A stretch of DNA of 43,385 nt from a virus (lineage: Duplodnaviria > Heunggongvirae > Uroviricota > Caudoviricetes), in the IMG/VR virus record IMGVR_UViG_2778261121_000005, positions 1 through 43,385 of that record; one strand, 5' to 3'. Under the pieces are notes generated by a model. That model was given only the letters and a program-made list of their open reading frames with translations. It had not been told where the DNA came from and ran no database searches. A program made the translations under genes and the position numbers. Every line of letters starts with the position of its first letter. Position 1 is the first letter of the stretch. This document shows, one piece after another, positions 2,406 through 41,967 of the stretch.

Positions 2406-4463
2406 TCATGAAACTTCCCCATTGGTTGAAAATATGGCTCCTCCAACTCCAAGTGTATTTCGTGTTGTGCTCAACCTAAGAGGGCTGGAGTCAGAATTAG
2501 AATATCCTGTAGCAGAAATAAAAGATCCTCCACTAATAGTCAACTGCGGAACATCGGCTATATCTGAATAAGTTCTGTCAGCAACAGTATTATTTATAGC
2601 CACATGTGATCCAAAAAAACTTCTTATTGTTTGGTTTTTAACTTTACTTCCTTCAATGGTTATCCTACTACCACAGTCGGCAATAAATCCTGAATCTGCA
2701 TCCAGCGTTGCATTCATAAAAGAAGCTTCAGATCTCTCTACATCAATCCATCTAATATCTTTTGTGGGATTTGCACCAAATACATGACAAATATTAGAGT
2801 TAAACCTTACTCCATCTTGGAGGTGCATTAATTTTTTTATATCTGTACCCCATAGCCTTGGAAAATTAACAGATGCTCCTGCATGGCAATCAAATCCCAA
2901 CTCAGCCCCTGAGATATCTACAGCCTTTCCTGAAATAACAGCACCAGTGTCTGCATTAACGGCTGTTCCACAATTGCGCATATCATTACCAGCAACATCA
3001 ACACAACCCGCACCATCAATACGCACACCAAGTGCACATCCATAAAAACCTTTTTCAATATTTGGTTCAAGGACTTTACCACTTGTTTCTGCATCACTTT
3101 CTTCAACGTCATGTCGTCTTGCATCAACATATGCTGTATGAATGCAGGTTAATCCACGATATGAGCAATGTATAGTTTTATGGTCGCGTATATTAACATT
3201 TGAACCATCTCTTACATTCCACCCTATATAACAATAGCTTGCACTTGACCCCTGAAAATCTGCTTTAACATTATAAATACAATTAACTGACGCAACCGTA
3301 CTCTCTGTGCACCGTTCAAACTTGCTTACAGGCATTGATGCCTTGACATTATTTACCAGTTGCAGGGAAGAGTATCTGCTATAAGAAAAATCACATACGT
3401 AATACCCTTCTGGCATATATGCAGCAACACTTTCCTCATCAGGAGCACATCCGGTATGATATGCACTAATTTTTGCACCAAAACTACCATGAATTCCAAC
3501 GTAGAACTTTCGAGCACCTGAATACGGATAGAAATTAAGTTCAGCTTTTTGAGTTACAATAAATGCACAAACATCGCTATCATCTCTATTTTCTTCGATC
3601 TGAATAGCAAATACAGGACTTTTTGCTGCATCGCAAATGTAAAATAAATACTTGTATTCGTAATACGTTCTAACGGTTTTAGTAAACAAACGAGTGTCAG
3701 AGAAAACCACTGAGTCTTCTGATATTATTTTAATCCATGATAAGTCACATCCTGCTGAAATTTCTATTTGCTCATTGAGCACAAAACCGGAAAGAATTTT
3801 AATTATGCAAAAGCCAATGCCATTTTTCCATAGTGGACGCAGTGCAACAGCCGAGTTTAGAGCATCACTAATAGATTTAAAATTACCATATTCCCCAACT
3901 GTTATTGTGAATGCATACCTGGAATTAAATACTGCGGCACTATCTCCAGAGTTAATAGCTGCAGATATCATGTCATAATTTGATATAAAATCATTTGGCG
4001 TGATTATTTCTGCGTTTTTATTGTGCTGGGTTCTAAGTTTTGAATTTACATGAACACTTTTAACTGCAATACGGGAGTCGTCAACAAGTATTTCATTACC
4101 CTCTGTTGCTAACTCTTGTCTTAACTGATCCGGGTCATACTTCAGCACATTCGGAAAATAGAACTGCTGTGAACCATATGCATCATAAACAGCCATAGAA
4201 TGACCCTGCACAGTAACGAACTTGGCAATCTGTCCGTTATATACCGGATATCCAGCAGCGTTAATGATGATTGGTTGCGAAACAGGAACGTGAGAACCGT
4301 CTTCGTTTTCCACATAAACCTGAATCTGGTTTTCAGGATTTACCGGGTCAGTGTCAATTTTACCGATATAAATTTTTCCATTGGCTACGGCTTTAAAAGA
4401 ACGAGCCATAGTGAAGAGTTGCGAAGGCATACTCACTACAACATTGGCTGTAATGTCTGTCAT
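2406..4463 (-). CDS. tailspike protein with P22 gp9-type head-binding N-terminal domain and divergent receptor-binding domain
   Basis: N-terminal ~110 aa ([11 protein letters not shown]...[33 protein letters not shown]...[14 protein letters not shown]...NVLKYDPDQ) closely matches the P22 tailspike head-binding domain as I recall it; the rest differs from P22. Confidence 0.9.
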
Positions 4464-4595: not shown

Positions 4596-4853
4596 ATGAT
4601 GTACAGCAAATACGATGAGGCGCAGTTCCACTTGAGGCTTACGCACGAGTTGCACGCTAAGATTAAGCAACGTGCAAAAATGAATAACAGGTCTATCAAT
4701 TCCGAAATTGTGGCTACGATGGAAGAATCACTCTCCAAACCATCACCTGTAAGCGGGTATCGTGATGAAGAAGAGAGGCTGGCCTCATTAATCTCGGAAC
4801 GAGTAAAAGAAGTTGTGGCTGATATCCTTAGAAAAGAAAAAACCCGCGATTAA
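4596..4853 (+). CDS. mnt: Mnt-like ribbon-helix-helix repressor
   Basis: 85 aa; NNRSINSEIVATMEESLSKPSPVSGYRDEEERLA resembles P22 Mnt (NGRSMNSELLQIVQDALSKPSPVTGYRNDAERLA); SD GGTGAGG upstream. The track ORF extends upstream without support. Confidence 0.8.
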   Translation: MMYSKYDEAQFHLRLTHELHAKIKQRAKMNNRSINSEIVATMEESLSKPSPVSGYRDEEERLASLISERVKEVVADILRKEKTRD

Positions 4854-15534: not shown

Positions 15535-16788
15535 TTACTGCCCGGCAATAACGATGCCCGTATATTCAGGAACCAGTACAGAGCAACCGTACAGAGTGGT
15601 GAAACGCGCAGTGGTTACGCCTTTGATGTGGTCGAAGGCGTAAGACATGATCAGCGTAGCGCCCTGCTCGGTGGTTGCTGTCATTACCTGTGGACCCTGA
15701 CCAGTAGGGAACGCCAGTTTGCCGTACATCAGTTCAACAGAACCATCAGCCCAGAACAGGTTAGCCGGTGCGGCATTTTTGTTGAGAATGGTGATTGCTG
15801 CGCTACTTGCCGCATTAGCATCAACGTTTGCATATGGTCGGCTGGCGACATCCGCGTTGTCAGGCGGCAGAATTTTCGGGGAGATAGTTACTGTCGTTCC
15901 GCTTACTGCCAGAACGCGGAATACCTGCGGCTGCCCGGTGGTATCTTTGGTGATCTGGTGTACAGAATTCACCCCTGCGATGGTAAACGCATCGCCAACC
16001 TGCAAACCTTCAGCAGATACCGTAATGGTCCCCTGTCGGTTATCCACTGGCATATCGTTAGCATCTTTCGCTTCAACCTTGTGCGCAGGTGCTGCTGCCA
16101 GCGTAATGGAAGTTGCTGTACCCTTCGGAACACGACCAGAAATATCGGTCTTGTAGCTATCGAAGGACGCAACCGGAGGGATTTGCGCTTTTTCGTATGC
16201 TGTCAGGGTTGCGCCCTGAGCATAGGCACGGTGACCAAGCTCGCCAGCAAGGTCTTTGTAGTTGAAGGGGTTCCAGAAAGAGCGACGGTTGATACCCTGA
16301 GGTACACCAATCGCCGTCATGGTGGCATCAATACCTGCCGCACAGTTCCACAAATCACGGCCCTGTGAACCTGTGGTTGAGTCAGCCATCGTGATCACGT
16401 TAGTAGCACGCTGCGTGACCATGGAAATCAGGTCAGAGTCAATCTGTGCAGCAAGGCGCATACCTGCGGCTCGACCAGCTTCAGTTTTATGTTCCGGGTC
16501 ACGCATTTCACGCGCATCCAGAGTGTACAGAATGTTTTTCGGCTCCTTGAACACAGAAGGAACAAGGCGCTGAACCAGTGCTGTTGGCGTTTTGCTGCTG
16601 AGGTCGAGGCCTTCCTCAATATTCATGTGGTAATGCTGCGGACGATACAGAACATCACCTGCTCGCTGCATTGCTGTATCACCGGGACGGAATTTTTTAG
16701 CGTTACGGGAAACTACGCAGGCGGCCTCAAAGCCTTCAACGTAGTTTTCGAACATGATTTCAAGGTCTTTTGCTAATTGGTTAGCCAT
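15535..16788 (-). CDS. major coat protein, P22 gp5-like
   Basis: 417 aa; several segments resemble P22 coat (e.g. KKF.PGDTAMQR and NLFWADGSVELM); follows the scaffold gene. Confidence 0.85.
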   Translation of the reverse strand: MANQLAKDLEIMFENYVEGFEAACVVSRNAKKFRPGDTAMQRAGDVLYRPQHYHMNIEEGLDLSSKTPTALVQRLVPSVFKEPKNILYTLDAREMRDPEHKTEAGRAAGMRLAAQIDSDLISMVTQRATNVITMADSTTGSQGRDLWNCAAGIDATMTAIGVPQGINRRSFWNPFNYKDLAGELGHRAYAQGATLTAYEKAQIPPVASFDSYKTDISGRVPKGTATSITLAAAPAHKVEAKDANDMPVDNRQGTITVSAEGLQVGDAFTIAGVNSVHQITKDTTGQPQVFRVLAVSGTTVTISPKILPPDNADVASRPYANVDANAASSAAITILNKNAAPANLFWADGSVELMYGKLAFPTGQGPQVMTATTEQGATLIMSYAFDHIKGVTTARFTTLYGCSVLVPEYTGIVIAGQ

Positions 16789-17790: not shown

Positions 17791-19989
17791 TTACTGCTGT
17801 GGTTGTTGCTGAGTTGATTTTTGCAGGATGCTGCTGATGTCCATGCGCTGCGCATGGCCCTGCGCCTGACTTTTCAGGACAAGCTCTGCATCAGCACGGG
17901 CATTATCTCCTTGCTGTTGCTGGAACTGTCCGAGCAGTTTCAGCGCCTCACGGATATCAGATTTTTGCTGGCTATCGGCAGATGCGAGGATTTTCACAAC
18001 ATTTGCCGCAGCAACCTGAGCATCCGTCTGTGCCTGGAATGCTTTAACCTGAATGGCTGCTTGTTCGTTCTGCGCTTTCTGCAATTCAGCCTGACCAGCA
18101 AGAAGCTGACCTTGCGCTGCAATCATAGCCGGATCCGGCTGACTGGCCTGTTGTTGTTTCGCCTGCTCAACCATCTGCTGCTCTTCTGGCGTTCTCGGCT
18201 TGATAACTCCAGACAGAAGCAACTGATTGCGGTTGTATTCTTTAAGGTCATCCATCCCTTCGCCGTCCATATTGTCGAGAATCATCGACGATACAAGGTC
18301 GTGCTTCGGCGTTCCTGGTGGGATAAGTGCCAGCATGGAAAGTAACGACTTAACCGTTGCATCACGGCGAGTAGCGAACGACTGACCGACATCGACAGTC
18401 ACTTCATAGTTACCCTGCGAAAGGTCGTTAAGCGCGATAACCTGGCCTGTCTGACGGTCAACCACTTCACCAGTCATCAGCGCCACGTCATCGCTGCCGT
18501 CCTCATTAACGATACGCATCGGCGTATCGCTGCCATAGACTTCACGAGCCATAGAAAGCCACACAACGCCAGCGCGACGCATGGATTTAGCCATGTTGTC
18601 CATGTAGATATAGGACTGCGTATCCATCCGGTTAAAGATGCTATCAACGGTATCGGTAGCAACGTTGCTCGGCATGTTCTCAAGCTGCGACGCGCCTGTA
18701 ATTTGCTGAATAGCCGTTCCGGTGTACTGCAATAGCCCGGCAAGAGCAGGAGGCATTTGTGTCGGAGGTGTATAACTGCTGACCTGAGCCTGCGCAGTAA
18801 TATCTCCGTTTTTGTTTTTCAGACTGACCATCGGCAGGAACGCCGGGCGCTTTTTGTTGCGCTCCGCCCAATGAGTGGCGAGAGGACCAGGAATCATGTC
18901 AACATCAACTACAGGAATGCCATCGCCGCCAGCCTGAGTGGCGTTATCTGCAATCATGGAAACCATCAGGTTCTCAAGACGCTGTGCATCCATCGCTTTT
19001 GCTGCGTGGCCTTCGATTCGCTCCTGATTATCAACAAATGAACGACGCCCATATACCGGGATGAGAGGAATATGTTCGCCCGGAATACGCTTCGGTTCTT
19101 CCAGCCATTCAGCGCCAGACAGAAGACCGCAATAAACTCGGCGTTTCTTCACTGTCCGCTCACCAATCAGTTCGAATGCGCCATCGGTCAGCTCGTCGAC
19201 AATATCTTTGATTTGATCTTCATCATAGATTGCCGTTTCTCCGCTAACAGGGTTACGCCATGCTGTGAGCTTCACCTTCTCTACGCGAACTTCGTAGTAG
19301 CGACCAACATAGATAGCATCAGGAGTTGACCAGTCATATTGAGTACCAGTGTCATCACGAGAAAGGCTTGCCGCAATGGAATCAGGGTATTCAGCCTCGA
19401 ACGCTTTAGGCGTCATGGAAAACATTTCCATAGCCCACATAGCATCAGAGCGGTCATATTGCTTGCTGTCCTGATCGAAGAAGACGCATGTCGCTGGGTC
19501 GTAAACAGGAAGAAGACTGATGCGTCGCTGCTCGTTACTCGGATCCATTTCATCTTCGTAATCGGCACACATGCGGAAACAACCGAATCCGCCCGTTACA
19601 GCATCATCAAATGCGTTATCACACGCTTCGCCACCGGATGTTTCCTGATAGTCAGCGCGGAATTTGCCGTTCATCTTTTCGGCTAACGCTTCCGATGCCT
19701 TATCGTCCTTCGGCCTGAATTTAACGCTGATGCGATTCTGTCGATACTCGCCAATGATGCGATCACATTCACGGGCAATCTTATTCAGTTCAAAACGCGG
19801 ATAATGCTCGAACCTGCCTTCATCAAATGAGTAACCAGCGTTTGTGCTGCCTTCCCACTGTGCGCCGGATACCCGGACGAAACGTTGAGCCTCAATAATC
19901 TGCTCACGCATATCCTGCGTTGCTGACCAGGCATTATCAAAGTTGCACAGCACCTTGCGATGCCAGTCAGTCATCTTTTTTTCTGCCAT
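17791..19989 (-). CDS. portal protein, P22 gp1-like
   Basis: 732 aa immediately downstream of the large terminase; Gln/Ala-rich C-terminal barrel-like tail. Confidence 0.85.
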   Translation of the reverse strand: MAEKKMTDWHRKVLCNFDNAWSATQDMREQIIEAQRFVRVSGAQWEGSTNAGYSFDEGRFEHYPRFELNKIARECDRIIGEYRQNRISVKFRPKDDKASEALAEKMNGKFRADYQETSGGEACDNAFDDAVTGGFGCFRMCADYEDEMDPSNEQRRISLLPVYDPATCVFFDQDSKQYDRSDAMWAMEMFSMTPKAFEAEYPDSIAASLSRDDTGTQYDWSTPDAIYVGRYYEVRVEKVKLTAWRNPVSGETAIYDEDQIKDIVDELTDGAFELIGERTVKKRRVYCGLLSGAEWLEEPKRIPGEHIPLIPVYGRRSFVDNQERIEGHAAKAMDAQRLENLMVSMIADNATQAGGDGIPVVDVDMIPGPLATHWAERNKKRPAFLPMVSLKNKNGDITAQAQVSSYTPPTQMPPALAGLLQYTGTAIQQITGASQLENMPSNVATDTVDSIFNRMDTQSYIYMDNMAKSMRRAGVVWLSMAREVYGSDTPMRIVNEDGSDDVALMTGEVVDRQTGQVIALNDLSQGNYEVTVDVGQSFATRRDATVKSLLSMLALIPPGTPKHDLVSSMILDNMDGEGMDDLKEYNRNQLLLSGVIKPRTPEEQQMVEQAKQQQASQPDPAMIAAQGQLLAGQAELQKAQNEQAAIQVKAFQAQTDAQVAAANVVKILASADSQQKSDIREALKLLGQFQQQQGDNARADAELVLKSQAQGHAQRMDISSILQKSTQQQPQQ

Positions 19990-19990
19990 A

Positions 19991-21406
19991 TCAACCTACA
20001 CCACAAGGAATTGAGTAACTGGAATAGTCGGGTTGCGCAGCCGACTCCGGGCAATGCATACACATCATCAGCGCATCAGCCAGGTTAGGAGATGGGATAC
20101 CGAGCTTCTGCTTCATTTCGACCTTAGTCATAAGCTCCAGCTTCCCGTTGTTATTGAATTTGCGCTGAATCTGCGTAAGTTCTGCAAACAGCTTCTCCAG
20201 CATCTTCTCGCCTATCGCTTCTTTGTCGAAACTCAGCATGTCGTCGGGGTCTGCATACTCACCGTGAACAACCGCCCGATATGTCAGATACAGTCTGTCA
20301 GCCAGCGCGTAATAGAATTGCGCTCGCTTATTGCGGAATACATCGCCAATAGTGCGAACGTTGTCACCCTGTACGACTTCATCAGCCCATGCTCCGGCCT
20401 GATACGGCGCATCTTCATCGAATGGCGATTCGCTACCCTTGAACATCGTGGCGGTGATTTTCTTGCCGGAGAACGCTTCCGTTGTCTGTCTGCGTAGCCC
20501 CGCACCGACGCCATCACCATCCCACAGGTAATGGTCAGCGCCGTCTTCAATCGCCAGCGAAGTAGCCCAGTCAGCACCCTCGTTGATGTCCATCAGCAGG
20601 CCTTCGGCAATGCGCTTAACAACCGAACCGTGACGCGATGCATAACCTTTAGCATCTGGCCCTGTATCTGATGGGTCATGCGCAGAGACAACAGCGCCTT
20701 TCGCTTTCCATCCGAGTTTCTTGTGCGCATCGGTTGCGGCTTCAAGCCATTCACGTTTGATGATTGCCATATCACTTGCGCTTACCGGCTCACCCAGCCA
20801 GATGTGACGATACAGTGTCGGATTTCTGCGTTTGCACTCTTCCATCTCCAGACGGAGAACTTCAGGAAAGTGCGGGTTGTCGGTGTAGTTCACCGTCAGC
20901 AGACAAATATCATCGGGAGGATTTACGACGAATCGCTGATAGGTATCGTCGAGGATGTTCTTCGGGTTAAAGCTCACCCATATTTCAGAGAACGGCTTAC
21001 GGATGGTTGGTATCAGGATATCCCATGATTCCTTTGTTACCGCTTCCGCTTCTTCCACCCAGCAGATATCAATGCCTTCGAGCGATTTAATCTTCGTCGG
21101 GTTGTTTTTGATGCCGTAGAACATGAACTCAGCATTCGTTCCGAGATGACGAATCATGGAACGCTGAATTTCAAACTCAGCCGAATACCCTTCACGCTCG
21201 ATAGTGTCTTCAAGCAACCGGATTACCGAATCGCTGATACTGTTTTGCAGTTCACGAGCGCAGAGAATACGCACAGGCTGCCGACGCGCCGCTTCAACAA
21301 GCAGCCTCGCAATTGCCCATGATTTGCCGCTACCTCGACCGCCTTTGGCGACTTTGTAGCGATGCGCCTCAATGAACGGTTCAAAGATAGGATTAATCGA
21401 GGTCAT
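19991..21406 (-). CDS. terminase large subunit
   Basis: 471 aa; Walker A GGRGSGKS near the N-terminus; overlaps the small-subunit gene. Confidence 0.9.
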   Translation of the reverse strand: MTSINPIFEPFIEAHRYKVAKGGRGSGKSWAIARLLVEAARRQPVRILCARELQNSISDSVIRLLEDTIEREGYSAEFEIQRSMIRHLGTNAEFMFYGIKNNPTKIKSLEGIDICWVEEAEAVTKESWDILIPTIRKPFSEIWVSFNPKNILDDTYQRFVVNPPDDICLLTVNYTDNPHFPEVLRLEMEECKRRNPTLYRHIWLGEPVSASDMAIIKREWLEAATDAHKKLGWKAKGAVVSAHDPSDTGPDAKGYASRHGSVVKRIAEGLLMDINEGADWATSLAIEDGADHYLWDGDGVGAGLRRQTTEAFSGKKITATMFKGSESPFDEDAPYQAGAWADEVVQGDNVRTIGDVFRNKRAQFYYALADRLYLTYRAVVHGEYADPDDMLSFDKEAIGEKMLEKLFAELTQIQRKFNNNGKLELMTKVEMKQKLGIPSPNLADALMMCMHCPESAAQPDYSSYSIPCGVG

Positions 21407-30728: not shown

Positions 30729-30876
30729 GTTTCACTCCTGCTTTGGCTAGTCTGTAAACACCAACAAGGCGCTCTGCGAACGCCCTGTTATTTGCTGCGG
30801 CTACCACTAATCCCTCAGGTGAATCAGGGTGTCGAATCTCTTCTTTTTCCTGGTATTTCTTACGACGTTTTGTCAT
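30715..30876 (-). CDS. hypothetical small basic protein (53 aa) between cII-like and initiator genes
   Basis: ATG with SD AGGAG at 6-nt spacing; stop overlaps the initiator start; not in ORF track (under 60 aa). Confidence 0.4.
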   Translation of the reverse strand: MTKRRKKYQEKEEIRHPDSPEGLVVAAANNRAFAERLVGVYRLAKAGVKHGRR

Positions 30877-30908
30877 AATTACTCCTGTGGATTGATCCAG
30901 TAATTCCC

Positions 30909-31205
30909 TCAGAATTGCATATCAATTTGCTTAAAATCCTCGGCGGCCACCGGGGATTTTTTCTTTGTGATTTCATCAAGCGCATACTTAAAAGCCCTGC
31001 TAATCGGACTGATGTCTGATGCCATTCCGAAAGCACACAAGACCGAAGCAATAAATCTCCAGTCCGTTCTGCTTATCTTCGATTCATGACAGCCAATCAT
31101 CTTTGCCAGACCGCGCTGGGTAAGCGTTGACAGGTTGATAAGTAAATCTGTTTCTGCGCGATCAACGTCGCGCTGTGATAGTTTGCTGTAACTTGTTTGT
31201 TCCAT
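30909..31205 (-). CDS. cII: CII-like transcriptional activator
   Basis: 98 aa immediately downstream of cro and nutR; HTH segment ...GLAKMIGCHESKISRTDWRF... analogous to lambda CII. Confidence 0.75.
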   Translation of the reverse strand: MEQTSYSKLSQRDVDRAETDLLINLSTLTQRGLAKMIGCHESKISRTDWRFIASVLCAFGMASDISPISRAFKYALDEITKKKSPVAAEDFKQIDMQF

Positions 31206-31269
31206 TTCTTATGATTTCCATAGGTAAATAATCACTAATACTCATCTTTCGATGAGCGATTAATTAGTT

Positions 31270-31304
31270 ACCGCGTTGTCGGCGGTGCAGATTGATAAAG
31301 AGCG
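31270..31304 (-). promoter_or_regulatory. nutR (boxA + boxB)
   Basis: On the minus strand boxA CGCTCTTTA, then boxB hairpin ACCGCCGACAACGCGGT, between cro and cII. Confidence 0.75.
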
Positions 31305-31314
31305 GATCCGCTTA

Positions 31315-31530
31315 TTAAGCGGCTTTGTGTTCCGGCGGGAACACGTCATCAAGACTGACTTTTGCGCCTAACTTGTTTAGGCACGCAACAAGAGCACGGC
31401 ATGTTTTAAGGTCTGGGAAGCGACGACCAGATTCCCAATGTCCGATAGCTCCCTGTGTGCATCCAACCGCCTTAGCAAGTGTTGTTTGAGAGATATTCAG
31501 TGACTCTCGATATTTTCGTAGGTTGCTCAT
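31315..31530 (-). CDS. cro: Cro-like repressor (HTH)
   Basis: 71 aa from internal ATG with SD GGAGGG; HTH QTTLAKAVGCTQGAIGHWESG; divergent from the repressor gene. Confidence 0.8.
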   Translation of the reverse strand: MSNLRKYRESLNISQTTLAKAVGCTQGAIGHWESGRRFPDLKTCRALVACLNKLGAKVSLDDVFPPEHKAA

Positions 31531-31554
31531 ATGCCCTCCATAGTAACCATGAAA

Positions 31555-31631
31555 CAATAATACGATATGTACTTTTGGAATGCAAACAAAAAATACATCT
31601 TGTGCATGGATGGTTTTAGTACATAGCGTAA
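31555..31631. promoter_or_regulatory. right operator/promoter region (OR, PR, PRM) with GTAC-type operator sites
   Basis: Inverted near-identical 12-mers TACGATATGTAC (31561..31572) and GTACATAGCGTA (31619..31630); minus-strand PR candidate TTTGCA-N18-TATTAT overlapping the first site. Confidence 0.6.
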
Positions 31632-31641
31632 TAATAAGGAT

Positions 31642-32301
31642 ATGAAAATGAAATGGTATGAACTGGCTAGATCCAGAATGAAAGAGCTCGGCATAACTCA
31701 AGAGAAGTTAGCTGAAGAGCTTGGTATGACGCAGGGTGGAATTGGTCACTGGTTGCGCGGATCTCGTCATCCATCTCTTGACGAGATTGGTGTGGTGTTT
31801 AAATACCTTGGTATTGATAACGTCTCATTCAACCACGACGGTACATTTTCACCTGCTGGCGAATACTCATCTGCCCCCGTTAAAAAACAATATGAGTACC
31901 CTGTTTTTTCTCATGTTCAGGCCGGGATGTTCTCGCCTGAGCTTAGAACCTTTACCAAAGGTGATGCGGAGAGATGGGTCAGCACAACCAAAAAAGCCAG
32001 TGATTGTGCGTTTTGGCTTGAAGTTGAAGGTAATTCCATGACCGCACCAACAGGATCCAAGCCAAGCTTTCCTGACGGAATGTTAATTCTCGTTGACCCT
32101 GAGCAGGCTGTTGAGCCAGGAGATTTCTGCATAGCCAGACTTGGCGGTGACGAGTTTACCTTCAAGAAACTGATCAGGGATAGCGGTCAGGTGTTCCTAC
32201 AACCACTAAACCCGCAATATCCAATGATCCCATGCAATGATAGCTGTTCCGTAGTAGGGAAAGTTATCGCCAGCCAGTGGCCTGAAGAGACATTTAGTTA
32301 A
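31642..32301 (+). CDS. cI: prophage repressor (CI / P22 C2-like, LexA-type S24 peptidase domain)
   Basis: 219 aa; N-terminal HTH ([25 protein letters not shown]); C-terminal domain resembles P22 C2 ([13 protein letters not shown]...LVDPE...FKKL...PLNPQYPMI). Confidence 0.9.
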
Positions 32302-32332
32302 CAGCCTCACCACTCTAAAACACACAACAATA

Positions 32333-32361
32333 ACCCGACCTTAGCGTCGGGTTTTCTTTTT
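32333..32361 (+). terminator. rho-independent terminator after the repressor gene
   Basis: ACCCGAC-cttagc-GTCGGGT followed by TTTCTTTTT. Confidence 0.7.
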
Positions 32362-32426
32362 CCAAAATATAAATCAATAAAATACAAAGTGTTATAAAAA
32401 ACCAACCACATTTAGAACATTTTGTA

Positions 32427-32455
32427 TTGACTCAATAAAGTACACATCGTACTAT
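32427..32455 (+). promoter_or_regulatory. PL promoter with overlapping OL operator
   Basis: TTGACT-N17-TACTAT; operator-like AGTACACATCGTACT (32439..32453) shares the GTACA.A.CGTA pattern with the OR sites. Confidence 0.65.
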
Positions 32456-32501
32456 TTAGCCATCAGCAGGAAGCTGGAAGCCAAACGGAACAGATTGGCA
32501 G

Positions 32502-32535
32502 GCTCTTTAACTTCGATGGGGCGCTGACAAAGCGC
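32502..32535 (+). promoter_or_regulatory. nutL (boxA + boxB)
   Basis: boxA-like GCTCTTTAA then boxB hairpin GCGCTGACAAAGCGC (matches P22 boxB as recalled). Confidence 0.75.
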
Positions 32536-32654
32536 AAACAGATACCAAACGAGATGGGTTTGGCGGTGATGTGAATTGCAGCTGCAACGACAGCAACCAG
32601 AAGATCAGCACCTGGCGCATCACCACCAAAGCCATTTCACATGAGGAAAATATC

Positions 32655-32963
32655 ATGACGGTAATCGTGTACGGAAAATCAACATTTGCAGGAAATGCCA
32701 AAACTCGCCGTCATGAGCGGCGCAGAAAGCTGGCTATCGAGCGTGATGCTATATGCAACATCATCGATTCGATCTTCGGCACAGACAGTGAGGAACCTGT
32801 TCAGGAAGCCCCGAGAAAGCGTTTAAGCATTTCTGAAAAAGCAATATCACTCGGCATCATTAGCAAATCAAATACAGATGCGAATAGCGGAAGCGTTTGT
32901 TTGCCTGAAGTCGCACTGTATGCTGCTGGTTACAGAAGGCAAAAACTAATTACAGCGAGGTAA
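32655..32963 (+). CDS. N-type antiterminator (P22 gp24-like)
   Basis: 102 aa MTVIVYGKSTFAGNAKTRRHERRRKLAIERDAICNIIDSIFG...; arginine-rich motif; SD GAGGAAAA. Confidence 0.85.
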   Translation: MTVIVYGKSTFAGNAKTRRHERRRKLAIERDAICNIIDSIFGTDSEEPVQEAPRKRLSISEKAISLGIISKSNTDANSGSVCLPEVALYAAGYRRQKLITAR

Positions 32964-32965
32964 AA

Positions 32966-33244
32966 ATGAAGCCTAGCATAACAATCAAGCCAGCGAGAGA
33001 TAATAGCAGGAACCGCCGCAGAGAGGCCAGGAAGGCAGAAAGAGCAGAGAAGGAAAACAAGAGCCGGGAGGAGAGAAAGGCAGAGATTTTGGAAAAAGGA
33101 GGATTGGCTGCCGTGAGGGGTGAAAAAGCAGCTGAATTAGCAGTAGCTCACGAAAAGACAGAGATTGACAATAATTCTGGTGGAGATGCAATGTTTAAAG
33201 TTGTCAATCACGCCCATCAACGAAACCCCAAAAAGAAATGGTAA
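32966..33244 (+). CDS. hypothetical Lys/Arg/Glu-rich protein (92 aa)
   Basis: ORF starting 3 nt after the antiterminator stop; highly charged; followed by a terminator. Confidence 0.45.
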   Translation: MKPSITIKPARDNSRNRRREARKAERAEKENKSREERKAEILEKGGLAAVRGEKAAELAVAHEKTEIDNNSGGDAMFKVVNHAHQRNPKKKW

Positions 33245-34413: not shown

Positions 34414-34725
34414 ATGATGATTCTGACTCTGAATGATAAGCGTGAAATATCGCAAATAATCGCAAGTTTTACTGATGAAGATTACGAACGAATCAACAGT
34501 GAAGTTGATCGCCTCTGCAAACGTTGCGACCCAATAAGCGAAATGCTTCGCTCATATAAACCAGATGAACACACTAAGGACGCTATCGACTGGCTGGAAG
34601 ATGATGACTGTAACTATCAGGAAAAAGCCGCTGAATGGTTCTGGGATGCAATAACCGAAAGAGTTAAGGCTGAATATGCCTTCGCAATATTCAAACGCAG
34701 ACACATTTTTGGAGAAGCTGCATGA
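34414..34725 (+). CDS. hypothetical acidic protein (103 aa) upstream of recT
   Basis: Stop overlaps the recT start (ATGA); acidic, Trp-rich. Confidence 0.5.
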   Translation: MMILTLNDKREISQIIASFTDEDYERINSEVDRLCKRCDPISEMLRSYKPDEHTKDAIDWLEDDDCNYQEKAAEWFWDAITERVKAEYAFAIFKRRHIFGEAA

Positions 34726-35633
34726 GCAATATCGTTGAATTCGTTAAACAGCAGGAGCAGTTATTCTGCGGAGCATTGACTGAACAGACGGTGACATGGG
34801 CTAAGGAAAGCCAGTTTGCAATTCAGTATTTCCAGAAAAACGATTACCTGGCTAAAACAGCACTGGCAAATCCAACCAGCGCACAGAACGCCATCATCAA
34901 TGTTGCGGCGATCGGCATCACCTTAAACCCGGCCAGCAAACTGGCTTATCTGGTTCCTCGCGACGGCATGGTGTGCCTTGATATCAGCTATATGGGATTG
35001 CTCCATATTGCAATGGAGTCTGGTGTTATCTCATGGGGTCAGGCAAAACTTGTTCATGCTAACGATACCTATGAGTCAAACGGGCTTGATAAAGCACCAA
35101 CCCATAAATACAACGCCTTCGGTGACCGTGGTGATATCGTTGGCGTTTACTGCACAGTTAAGACGCCAGCAGGTGATTATCTAACGGAAGAGATGAGTCT
35201 GGCTGAAATTGAGGCTGTAAGGAAAACAAGCAAGGCAGCATTCAGCGATAAAGGACCATGGGTAAATCACTGGAATGAGATGGCGCGAAAGACGGTCGTA
35301 AAGCGTGCAAGCAAGTATTGGCCTAAGGCATCACGCCTTGATAGTGCTATTCACGTACTAAACGAAGAAGAAGGCGTGTGGACCGAACCAGTTATGCCGC
35401 ACAAATCAGAGGAAGATATCCGCGAAGATGAACGGAAACGCCAGCAGGAAATAATGGATAAAGCACAACTTCTTTGCGATGAAATGGCTCAGGCAGAAAA
35501 CATGGATGATTTGAAGCGATATTTTGCAGAAGCATATCGCCTGACATCTGGAATGAAATTGCAGCAGAACGTACAAGCCATTTACATAGAATGCAAAGCG
35601 AAACTGGAGGTTGCCAGTGAGCAAACTGTATGA
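34722..35633 (+). CDS. recT: RecT-family single-strand annealing recombinase
   Basis: 303 aa; GPWVNHWNEMARKTVVKRASKYWP matches the conserved RecT segment. Confidence 0.85.
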   Translation: MSNIVEFVKQQEQLFCGALTEQTVTWAKESQFAIQYFQKNDYLAKTALANPTSAQNAIINVAAIGITLNPASKLAYLVPRDGMVCLDISYMGLLHIAMESGVISWGQAKLVHANDTYESNGLDKAPTHKYNAFGDRGDIVGVYCTVKTPAGDYLTEEMSLAEIEAVRKTSKAAFSDKGPWVNHWNEMARKTVVKRASKYWPKASRLDSAIHVLNEEEGVWTEPVMPHKSEEDIREDERKRQQEIMDKAQLLCDEMAQAENMDDLKRYFAEAYRLTSGMKLQQNVQAIYIECKAKLEVASEQTV

Positions 35634-37715: not shown

Positions 37716-37925
37716 ATGGCTATCGCTGCAAGTTACACCATGCATCTCTATTGTGACTGCCGCCAGTGTACGGAAGGTGTATATCCAGTGCCAGACTTCG
37801 GTGAGTATATCGGTACGTCATGGTCTGGTTGTGCAAAAGAGGCCCGTAAAGACGGGTGGCGAATAAGTAAAGACAAAACACGTGCTTTTGCGCCCGGGCA
37901 TAAAGTTTTGAGGATTAACAAATGA
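37716..37925 (+). CDS. hypothetical Cys-containing small protein (69 aa)
   Basis: Internal ATG after SD AAAGGAGAGTGAT; CDCRQC motif. Confidence 0.45.
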   Translation: MAIAASYTMHLYCDCRQCTEGVYPVPDFGEYIGTSWSGCAKEARKDGWRISKDKTRAFAPGHKVLRINK

Positions 37926-38284
37926 CCACTATTACCAAAGAACGTATCGAATTATTCATTAAAAATCCGCTTGATAACGGGCTTACCCGTGGCGAACAAA
38001 TGGAACTGGCACGAATTGCGCTGGCATCACTGGAAGCCGAACCGGTTGCAGTAAACGACGACATGGCTTACGCATTCCATCACGCATTGTCAGATTCATC
38101 GCTAGGCGCTGATGAAGTAGAGGAAATTAAGGCCGGTTTGCGTGCTGCCTTTGCCAACGTCACTATCCAACCAGAGCCGGTAGTGCCGGATGAAATCGAG
38201 CCAGACGATAGCAATACGTTTGATTATGTTGATGGCTGGAACGCCTGCCGCGCTGCCATGCTTCAGGGTAAGGGAGGTGAGTAA
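37922..38284 (+). CDS. hypothetical protein sharing an N-terminal module with the 39159..39698 gene
   Basis: 120 aa; ITKER...ELARIALASLEAEPV shared with the downstream paralogue at protein and DNA level. Confidence 0.5.
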   Translation: MTTITKERIELFIKNPLDNGLTRGEQMELARIALASLEAEPVAVNDDMAYAFHHALSDSSLGADEVEEIKAGLRAAFANVTIQPEPVVPDEIEPDDSNTFDYVDGWNACRAAMLQGKGGE

Positions 38285-38646: not shown

Positions 38647-39162
38647 ATGGCGTTAACACACCGCGAACTCTGTCAGATTGCGTATAAGTTCCTTAAGCGT
38701 AACGGGTTCAAGGTTTGTTTTCATGACCGCTTTATAGCTGTAACCAGTACCGGAGAACAGCCAGATGCTATGGGATTCAGAAATTCAGCATCATGCCTGA
38801 TAGAGGCGAAGTGTTCTCGTGCTGACTTGTTGGCAGATAGAAAAAAGCGTTTTCGTAAAAATCCATCTCTTGGAATGGGCGACTGGCGATTCTTTATTAG
38901 TGAGCCGGGAATTATTTCAGTTGAGGATTTACCACCTGGCTGGGGATTACTTCACGTTGTTAACGGAAGAGTACGGAAAGTACATGGGTGGCCCAAGGGT
39001 AATTGCTGTTGGGGTAATCCTGACGATAAGCCATTTACTGGAAATAAGCAGGTTGAATGCGATTACATGTTATCTGCATTAAGGCGCATGGAGTTGAGAG
39101 GGCACCTTAATGAAATATATGACGGTGTAATTGTTAATAAGAAAGAAGGAAACGCGGCATGA
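38647..39162 (+). CDS. hypothetical protein with PD-(D/E)xK nuclease-like motif
   Basis: 171 aa from ATG after SD AAAGGAGAGTGAT; ...GEQPDAMGF...CLIEAKCSR fits a PD...(D/E)xK core. Confidence 0.5.
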   Translation: MALTHRELCQIAYKFLKRNGFKVCFHDRFIAVTSTGEQPDAMGFRNSASCLIEAKCSRADLLADRKKRFRKNPSLGMGDWRFFISEPGIISVEDLPPGWGLLHVVNGRVRKVHGWPKGNCCWGNPDDKPFTGNKQVECDYMLSALRRMELRGHLNEIYDGVIVNKKEGNAA

Positions 39163-40700: not shown

Positions 40701-40919
40701 ATGTACTTGACACTTCAGGAGTGGAACGCACGCCAGCGACGCCCAAGAAGCCTTGAAACAGTTCGTCGATGGGTACGCGAGTGCAGGATATTCCCACCAC
40801 CGGTTAAGGATGGAAGAGAGTATCTGTTCCACGAATCAGCAGTAAAGGTTGACTTAAATCGACCAGTAACAGGTAGCCTTTTGAAGAGGATCAGAAATGG
40901 GAAGAAGGCGAAGTCATGA
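40701..40919 (+). CDS. xis: excisionase (lambda Xis)
   Basis: 72 aa MYLTLQEWNARQRRPRSLETVRRWVRECRIFPPPVKDGREYLFHESAVKVDLNRP..., near-identical to lambda Xis as recalled. Confidence 0.95.
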   Translation: MYLTLQEWNARQRRPRSLETVRRWVRECRIFPPPVKDGREYLFHESAVKVDLNRPVTGSLLKRIRNGKKAKS

Positions 40920-41967
40920 GCGCCGGGATTTACCCCCTAACCTTTATATAAGAAACAATGGATATTACTGCTACAGGGACCCAAGGACGGGTAAAGAGTT
41001 TGGATTAGGCCGAGACAGGAGGATAGCAATCACTGAAGCTATACAGGCCAACATTGAGTTATTTTCAGGACACAAGCACAAGCCTCTGACAGCGAGAATC
41101 AACAGTGATAATTCTGTTACGTTACATTCATGGCTTGATCGCTACGAAAAAATCCTCGCCAGCAGAGGAATCAAGCAGAAGACACTCATAAATTACATGA
41201 GCAAAATTAAAGCAATAAGGAGGGGTCTGCCTGATGCTCCACTTGAAAACATCACCACAAAAGAAATTGCGGCAATGCTCAATGGATACATAGACGAGGG
41301 CAAGGCGGCGTCAGCCAAGTTAATCAGATCAACACTGAGCGATGCATTCCGAGAGGCAATAGCTGAAGGCCATATAACAACAAACCCTGTCGCTGCCACT
41401 CGCGCAGCAAAATCAGAGGTAAGGAGATCAAGACTTACGGCTGACGAATACCTGAAAATTTATCAAGCAGCAGAATCATCACCATGTTGGCTCAGACTTG
41501 CAATGGAACTGGCTGTTGTTACCGGGCAGCGAGTTGGTGATTTATGCGAAATGAAGTGGTCTGATATCGTAGATGGATATCTTTATGTCGAGCAAAGCAA
41601 AACAGGCGTAAAAATTGCCATCCCAACAGCATTGCATGTTGATGCTCTCGGGATATCAATGAAGGAAACACTTGATAAATGCAAAGAGATTCTTGGCGGA
41701 GAAACCATAATTGCATCTACTCGTCGTGAACCGCTTTCATCCGGCACAGTATCAAGGTATTTTATGCGCGCACGAAAAGCATCAGGTCTTTCCTTCGAAG
41801 GGGATCCGCCAACCTTTCACGAGTTGCGCAGTTTGTCTGCAAGACTCTATGAGAAGCAGATAAGCGATAAATTTGCTCAACATCTTCTCGGGCATAAGTC
41901 GGACACCATGGCATCACAGTATCGTGATGACAGAGGCAGGGAGTGGGACAAAATTGAAATCAAATAA
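40897..41967 (+). CDS. int: tyrosine integrase (lambda Int)
   Basis: 356 aa, near-identical to lambda Int as recalled (MGRRRSHERRDLPPNLYIRNNGYYCYRDPRTGKEFGLGRDRRIAITEAIQAN...); overlaps xis. Confidence 0.95.
   Translation: MGRRRSHERRDLPPNLYIRNNGYYCYRDPRTGKEFGLGRDRRIAITEAIQANIELFSGHKHKPLTARINSDNSVTLHSWLDRYEKILASRGIKQKTLINYMSKIKAIRRGLPDAPLENITTKEIAAMLNGYIDEGKAASAKLIRSTLSDAFREAIAEGHITTNPVAATRAAKSEVRRSRLTADEYLKIYQAAESSPCWLRLAMELAVVTGQRVGDLCEMKWSDIVDGYLYVEQSKTGVKIAIPTALHVDALGISMKETLDKCKEILGGETIIASTRREPLSSGTVSRYFMRARKASGLSFEGDPPTFHELRSLSARLYEKQISDKFAQHLLGHKSDTMASQYRDDRGREWDKIEIK

Follow-up and report, generated by a model that had tools for sequence, protein, structure and literature searches.

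The immunity region of the Shiga toxin (Stx) phage VT2-Sakai (Sp5) carries three predicted operators in its right operator region (OR1-3) and three in its left (OL1-3), a prediction of Fattah et al. 2000 as relayed in the accounts of that work in PMC4587872 and PMC10742460. The VT2-Sakai type of repressor corresponds to 'Clade I' of the Stx-phage CI proteins, and its overall identity to lambda CI is about 61% (PMC8951638). The record AP005153 likewise annotates three 'putative operators' in each of the two operator regions; it belongs to the Stx1-converting phage of the E. coli O157:H7 strain Morioka V526, and AP005154 to the Stx2 II phage of that strain. Here we analyzed the corresponding region of a virus of the class Caudoviricetes, IMG/VR record IMGVR_UViG_2778261121_000005, whose full 43,385 bp are referred to as the window. 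With high confidence, we read it as a lambdoid, P22-like prophage immunity region in which a VT2-Sakai/Sp5-type cI-cro switch with six 17-bp operators is combined with separate P22-type N/nut modules.

The repressor, Cro and the immunity type

We found that the cro-OR-cI segment is 92.9% nucleotide-identical to VT2-Sakai/Sp5-type Stx phages (PA series, Nil2, 2851, AP005153 and AP005154), and that the N-terminal domain of cI is 95.1% protein-identical to the Stx2a/PA-series/1717 cI. All six operators annotated in AP005153 correspond one-to-one, and in the same register, to 17-mers in the window, with 0-3 base differences per 17-mer; the few changes are TACG against TACA in OR1 together with changes in the central triplets. 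Operator order, register and promoter overlap are shared with AP005153 and AP005154, as is a lambda-like C-terminal domain of the repressor. These Stx phages differ in having about 1.5 kb of extra open reading frames (ORFs) between cI and OL, and AP005153 has an HK97-like rather than a P22-type N as well as lambda/HK022-like O and P, unlike the window. Phages Dewey, Louie, vB_EcoP-683R2, vB_EcoP-720R6 and phi458 carry the immunity cassette at 97.4-98.5% nucleotide identity. Judged by its sequence, the immunity region belongs to the VT2-Sakai/Sp5 specificity, which is already annotated and described, and no new kind of system is revealed.

The cI gene (31642-32301, plus strand, with its ATG at 31642 or 31648) encodes an HTH_3 domain (PF01381) followed by a Peptidase_S24 domain (PF00717). 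From residue 82 (nucleotide 31891) onward, the hinge and S24 domain are about 98% identical to the lambda cI protein, with 94.3% nucleotide identity over 31891-32295, and the protein aligns with the lambda repressor structure 3BDN over residues 9-216 (E = 3e-96). The autopeptidase features are present: Ala-Gly at residues 92-93, and GNSM and FKKL for the Ser/Lys dyad. The N-terminal domain diverges from lambda and has no N-terminal arm; its recognition helix reads TQGGIGHW, and it keeps counterparts of lambda Q33 and Q44, as well as of E34 and D38, which are E19 and E23 here. This cI is a chimera, its own helix-turn-helix domain being fused to a lambda-like C-terminal domain. The divergent cro gene (31315-31533, minus strand) encodes a 72-residue HTH_3 protein with the recognition helix TQGAIGHW. 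The N-terminal domain of cI is 35% identical to Cro, and the two recognition helices are nearly the same, as would be anticipated for proteins that share one set of operators.

Comparison with other described immunity types places the locus apart from each of them. Lambda has the same divergent cI/cro layout with tripartite OR and OL, places OR2 about 42 bp from the cI start, and uses 17-bp pseudo-palindromes with A2, A5 and C6 in each half-site. It differs in its recognition helix (GQSGVGAL vs TQGGIGHW here), its half-site (ATCACC vs ARTACR), its OR1-OR2 spacing (24 bp vs 33 bp) and its OL-OR distance (about 2.4 kb, with rexAB, vs 0.88 kb). An imm-lambda specificity was rejected because the lambda recognition helix and TATCACCGC-type operators are missing and only the C-terminal domain is lambda-like. 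An imm-P22 (c2) specificity was also rejected, since the P22 c2 operators (ATTTAAG...CTTAAAT type) are unrelated; P22 matches the cI region only over 92 bp at 74% identity, within cI. The operators had been claimed to be unlike those of lambda and P22, and the phages' own records, with that of 933W read in addition, bear this out.

Phage 933W shares the tripartite OR logic, and its OR1, CGTACTGAAAGTACG (4832-4846 of its record), and OL1 here, GTACACATCGTAC (32440-32452), are both of the form GTAC-N5-GTAC, which may be a case of convergence or point to a distant shared ancestor of the half-site. Its operators are 15 bp long and have T or C at position 6, where A or G binds poorly (PMC3317979). 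We rejected the 933W specificity since the repressors are 21% identical, the Cro proteins show no detectable similarity, and operator position 6 is A or G in the window. A likeness is also found in the Salmonella g341c/epsilon34-type C1, whose N-terminal domain is 50% identical to that of cI here and whose annotated repressor sites, ATACACATCGTAT and ATACAAATTGTAT, share a TACA-N3-YGTA core with these operators; g341c differs in its recognition helix (TKGAVSHW), in the spacing of its sites and in its Salmonella host.

Operators, promoters and their conservation

The earlier note had drawn attention to three near-identical 12-mers, and sequence lookup finds them where it placed them: TACGATATGTAC at 31561-31572 (read as GTACATATCGTA on the minus strand), GTACATAGCGTA at 31619-31630 (plus strand) and GTACACATCGTA at 32440-32451 (plus strand, within 32439-32453). 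In a search of both strands of the window, the motif GTACANANCGTA has exactly 3 matches, all at OR or OL and none elsewhere, against a mean of 0.06 expected by chance. Each 12-mer is a portion of a 17-bp pseudo-palindrome with the core TACR-N3-YGTA and the half-site W-A-R-T-A-C-R. Six candidate operators of this form are present, OR1-3 in the cro-cI intergenic region and OL1-3 in the cI-N intergenic region; across their 12 half-sites, A-C at positions 5-6 is invariant and A at position 2 occurs in 11. By analogy with the known contacts in the lambda co-crystals, the Q44 equivalent of cI would fit this conserved A. The proposal that the 12-mers are immunity operators thus stands in that they coincide with annotated Stx-phage operators and overlap PR, PL and the predicted PRM, but the set needs enlarging to six 17-bp sites. 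In the consensus that went with it, the central A is not conserved, being C in OR2 and T in OL2, and the dyad had been passed over. A definition as GTAC-N5-GTAC was rejected: its only matches are OL1 and, at 38971, a single unrelated site, so it was replaced by the TACR-N3-YGTA core.

At OR, the right early promoter PR (31557-31585, minus strand) consists of a -35 TTGCAT (31580-31585), a 17-bp spacer and a -10 TATTAT (31557-31562), and drives cro, nutR and cII. A consensus scan reports it in a TTTGCA-18-TATTAT register (31557-31586), and its position matches the annotated PR of AP005153. OR1 (31558-31574, minus strand, AAGTACATATCGTATTA; core TACATATCGTA at 31561-31571) overlaps the PR -10 and spacer, with its centre at about -16 relative to the inferred PR start. 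OR2 (31591-31607, plus strand, AAATACATCTTGTGCAT; core TACATCTTGTG at 31594-31604) is the OR2 of AP005153 and does not overlap the PR -35, unlike in lambda. OR3 (31617-31633, plus strand, TAGTACATAGCGTAATA; core 31620-31630) overlaps the predicted -10 (TAATAA at 31629-31634, plus strand) of the repressor maintenance promoter PRM, the hexamers of which were placed by geometry, and is centred at about -17 relative to the predicted PRM start. Between the PR -35 and OR2 there is an A-run at 31586-31593, located where a PR UP element would be.

At OL, the consensus scan finds the left early promoter PL as TTGACT-17-TACTAT at 32427-32455 (plus strand), so that the OL 12-mer does overlap the PL -10 as had been noticed. 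The PL transcript probably starts within CCATCAGCAGGA (32460-32471), a stretch common to lambda and P22. OL1 (32438-32454, plus strand, AAGTACACATCGTACTA; core 32441-32451) is centred at about -16 relative to the PL start and overlaps the -10. OL2 (32413-32429, plus strand, TAGAACATTTTGTATTG; core AACATTTTGTA at 32416-32426) abuts and overlaps the PL -35, and OL3 (32380-32396, plus strand, AAATACAAAGTGTTATA; core 32383-32393) lies farthest from it; these two are the OL2 and OL3 of AP005153. The spacings are 33 bp for OR1-OR2, 26 bp for OR2-OR3, 25 bp for OL1-OL2 and about 33 bp for OL2-OL3.

A weight matrix of half-sites was trained on the three 12-mer sites, OR1, OR3 and OL1, alone and used to rank 43,369 positions in the window. 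Only OR1, OR3 and OL1 might be functional, one operator per promoter, with OR2, OL2 and OL3 as weak look-alikes, and the scores lean that way: 8-12.5 bits for the latter three vs 20-22 bits for the former. However, OL3, OL2 and OR2 rank 4th, 5th and 7th of all positions, every one of them within OR or OL, and independent annotators marked the same extra sites in AP005153. The centre of OR2 also stands 42-43 bp before the cI ATG (31642), a lambda-like distance. The single matrix match outside OR and OL that scores above OR2 (rank 6) is AAGAACGTATCGAATTA at 37938-37954, at the start of an ORF of unknown function (37922-38284). It was rejected as an operator, as it lies inside an ORF and one of its half-sites is without the invariant A-C; the match is probably due to chance.

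Conservation was followed in 80 IMG/VR loci whose cI N-terminal domains are 99-100% identical, together with three phage records, which yield 28 distinct OR and 29 distinct OL sequences. Variable columns make up 5 of the 48 in the half-site cores vs 59 of 148 elsewhere (central triplets, spacers and indels; Fisher p = 8e-5, which overstates independence because the loci are closely related). Four of the five half-site changes keep the R/Y consensus of TACR-N3-YGTA, and two of these, in OR1 (TACG to TACA) and OR2 (TGTG to TGTA), raise symmetry; the only one to break the pattern turns GTAC into GCAC in OL1 by a T-to-C exchange and is found in 3 loci. OR1 half-site columns are conserved across the 28 OR variants. 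The half-sites of the extra operators are conserved as well, those of OL2 being invariant in all 29 OL variants, which again argues against their being look-alikes. In favor of the three-site alternative, the OR1-OR2 spacing is polymorphic (32-35 bp) while that of OR2-OR3 is fixed at 26 bp. The spacing varies because the A-tract between OR1 and OR2 differs in length, with a run of 6 here, 6-8 in near-identical IMG/VR loci and fewer in the Stx1 phage. Altogether, we consider it quite improbable that only three of the six operators function.

The same pattern of variation bears on whether the 12-mers are shared promoter-core sequence beside a -10 rather than operators bound by protein. All three do stand in one register to a -10 hexamer, CG-TATTAT at PR, CG-TACTAT at PL and CG-TAATAA at the predicted PRM, and it is because of this common register that they look near-identical. 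However, the sites have dyad symmetry, their core recurs at three positions off any -10, variation falls in the central 3 bp while the half-sites are kept, and lambda operators share the 17-bp skeleton, which leaves this explanation scarcely plausible. Chance recurrence of an AT-rich 12-mer has a negligible likelihood, as the intergenic regions are AT-rich but 0 of 100 dinucleotide-preserving shuffles reach 3 matches and more than 80 related loci preserve the sites.

The close relatedness of the loci is one of several points that weigh against the assignment to a VT2-Sakai/Sp5-type switch with six operators. The only binding data found in the literature are for lambda cI, which binds VT2-Sakai sites at a micromolar level (PMC10742460). 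Our literature search found no footprint or electrophoretic mobility shift assay that pairs the cognate (Sp5-type) repressor with its own operators; the operator names OR1, OL1, OR3 and OL3 were also not matched in the supplementary files of PMC4587872. PRM was not picked up by the consensus promoter scan and its hexamers are weak, so that its position follows from geometry. Additionally, an OR1-OR2 spacing of 33 bp that is polymorphic, against 24 bp in lambda, means that lambda-style OR1-OR2 cooperativity is not assured.

With these points taken into account, the six-operator switch would work as follows, where binding of cI and Cro, activation and cooperativity are argued by analogy. Dimers of cI and of Cro would bind the six 17-bp pseudo-palindromes. 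Repressor at OR1 and OL1 would block RNA polymerase, turning off PR (cro, cII and replication) and PL (N). Repressor at OR2 would probably activate PRM through its acidic patch (E19 and E23); lambda OR2 lies about 42 bp upstream of the leaderless PRM transcript start, and the position of OR2 here, 42-43 bp from the ATG, is consistent with such activation. Occupancy of OR3 would cover the PRM -10 and so provide negative autoregulation and Cro-mediated shut-off. The lambda-like C-terminal domain is expected to mediate dimerization, cooperativity and RecA-stimulated autocleavage at Ala-Gly, and the PL and PR transcripts would bear P22-type boxA and boxB elements read by a P22-type N.

If the lambda-type contact between dimers needs about 24-26 bp, the cooperative pair at OR could be OR2-OR3 instead of OR1-OR2, and mixed oligomers with lambda cI could form; we put this forward as an unlikely proposal. 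Were it true, OR2-OR3 pairing would give a switch logic different from that of lambda. Mixed cI oligomers formed through the shared C-terminal domain would likewise offer a physical explanation of the partial cross-immunity between lambda and VT2-Sakai that PMC10742460, in its second-hand account, attributes to Fattah et al. 2000. The VT2-Sakai/Sp5-type repressor is widespread and matters for the induction of Stx2a phages in Sakai-type O157:H7 strains, and it has seemingly never been footprinted on its own operators.

N, nut sites and module boundaries

The earlier note had also held that the boxB hairpins match P22 nut sites and that repressor and antitermination specificities were inherited separately. 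Both boxB elements are indeed identical to their P22 nutL and nutR counterparts (NC_002371). In nutL (32502-32535, plus strand), boxA GCTCTTTAAC at 32502-32511 precedes boxB GCGCTGACAAAGCGC at 32521-32535; in nutR (31270-31304, minus strand), boxA CGCTCTTTA at 31296-31304 precedes boxB ACCGCCGACAACGCGGT at 31270-31286. Each boxB folds into a short hairpin with a GACAA pentaloop, the boxA elements are near-identical to those of P22, and across 37 bp of the nutR segment the identity to P22 is 94.6%. The N antiterminator (32655-32963, plus strand) is of the P22 gp24 type (PF25694, E = 1.9e-38) and carries the P22 arginine-rich motif GNAKTRRHERRRKLAIERD. It is 67% identical to P22 gp24 overall, with only 2 differences in residues 1-42, where the arginine-rich motif lies, and a divergent C-terminal half. 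Across nutL/N, P22 is only 73% identical in nucleotides, and this module is closest to E. coli Stx phages, with 97% identity. 'P22-type' is a specificity class, defined by boxB and the arginine-rich motif, and not a statement of descent from P22 itself.

Two phages separate the immunity cassette from its flanks. The cassette at 31315-32474 (cro, OR, cI, OL and PL) is 97.7% identical to that of Dewey, in which it stands beside lambda N and lambda nutL. Conversely, SH2026Stx1 matches the window at 30800-31305 (nutR/cII, 98%) and 32455-32854 (nutL/N, 97%), and carries a different cI and cro between the same flanks. The ends of these matches therefore place the crossovers just past the cro stop and in the conserved PL start region. 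The right junction is TATTTAGCCATCAGCAGGA (32453-32471), inside the 32455-32474 overlap of the Dewey and SH2026Stx1 matches. At the left junction (31305/31315), a perfect palindrome, CCGCTTATTAAGCGG at 31308-31322, spans the cro stop and is terminator-like on the plus strand in our scan.

In 81 loci with this cI DNA-binding domain, boxB is of the lambda type on both sides in 43 and of the P22 type on both sides in 22, and no locus has mixed types on the left and right. That boxB types vary beside one cI domain and are never mixed indicates that immunity and antitermination are separate modules. On the evidence of these alignments, the immunity cassette and its two nut-bearing flanks are modules that recombine independently. 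In total, one immunity cassette is found beside lambda-type, P22-type and HK97-like antitermination modules, at least three in all, a clean example of the modular theory of lambdoid evolution with crossovers at short conserved linkers. Of 5,426 complete E. coli genomes, 73 have exactly this 1.5-kb arrangement, E. coli W among them; in that strain and others the whole 1.5 kb, with P22-type nutL and nutR and the start of the N gene, is 99.7-99.9% identical. The E. coli W prophage has a different O-like gene. The pairing of Sakai-type operators with P22-type nut sites is ordinary lambdoid mosaicism, which is already known. For annotation, the VT2-Sakai/Sp5 immunity group and the P22 N/nut class predict which phages are excluded and which antiterminators can be used.

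Neighboring genes and prophage context

Downstream of cI, a terminator scan finds a strong intrinsic terminator at 32332-32363 (plus strand; folding z = -4.65 for 32332-32353). The overlapping segment 32324-32359 is 89% identical to lambda and a homologue of the terminator that lambda has after rexB. Both rexA and rexB are absent here, which is why the OL-OR distance is only 0.88 kb. In the first codons of cII, TTGC-N6-TTGT at 31183-31196 (plus strand) has the same register to the cII ATG as the TTGC-N6-TTGC repeat of lambda PRE, and is probably an establishment promoter directed toward cI.

The window resembles a complete P22-like prophage, with genes for the tailspike (2406-4463), major head protein (15535-16788), portal (17791-19989), large terminase (19991-21406), RecT (34722-35633) and integrase (40897-41967), as well as P22-style O-like and DnaB-like replication genes. 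The P22-type N/nut modules fit this backbone, and the Sakai/lambda-type immunity cassette is thus arguably the import. In scans of the whole window, no Rfam family reached its gathering threshold and no tRNA was found.

Directly downstream of N, the ORF at 32966-33244 (plus strand, 92 residues) is a homologue of Nun, the transcription-termination and exclusion factor of HK022, with a phrog_5632 match at E = 1.5e-29 and 33% identity to Nun over 85 residues. Among 50,697 phage records it has no full-length match. Within the set of loci that share the immunity cassette, it is present in 4 of the 24 with P22-type nut sites and in 0 of the 45 with lambda-type sites (p = 0.012, confounded by linkage). 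Conservation is seen at both of its functional ends, in an arginine-rich motif, SRNRRREARKAER vs SRDRRRIARWEKR in Nun, and in the C-terminus, VVNHAHQRNPKKKW. The arginine-rich motif resembles the Nun/lambda-N type and not the P22-N type, so that the protein might act on lambda-type nut sites and spare the resident P22-type ones. In this way it might stop transcription in superinfecting phages whose nut sites are of the lambda type, with the nut sites of its own prophage left unaffected.

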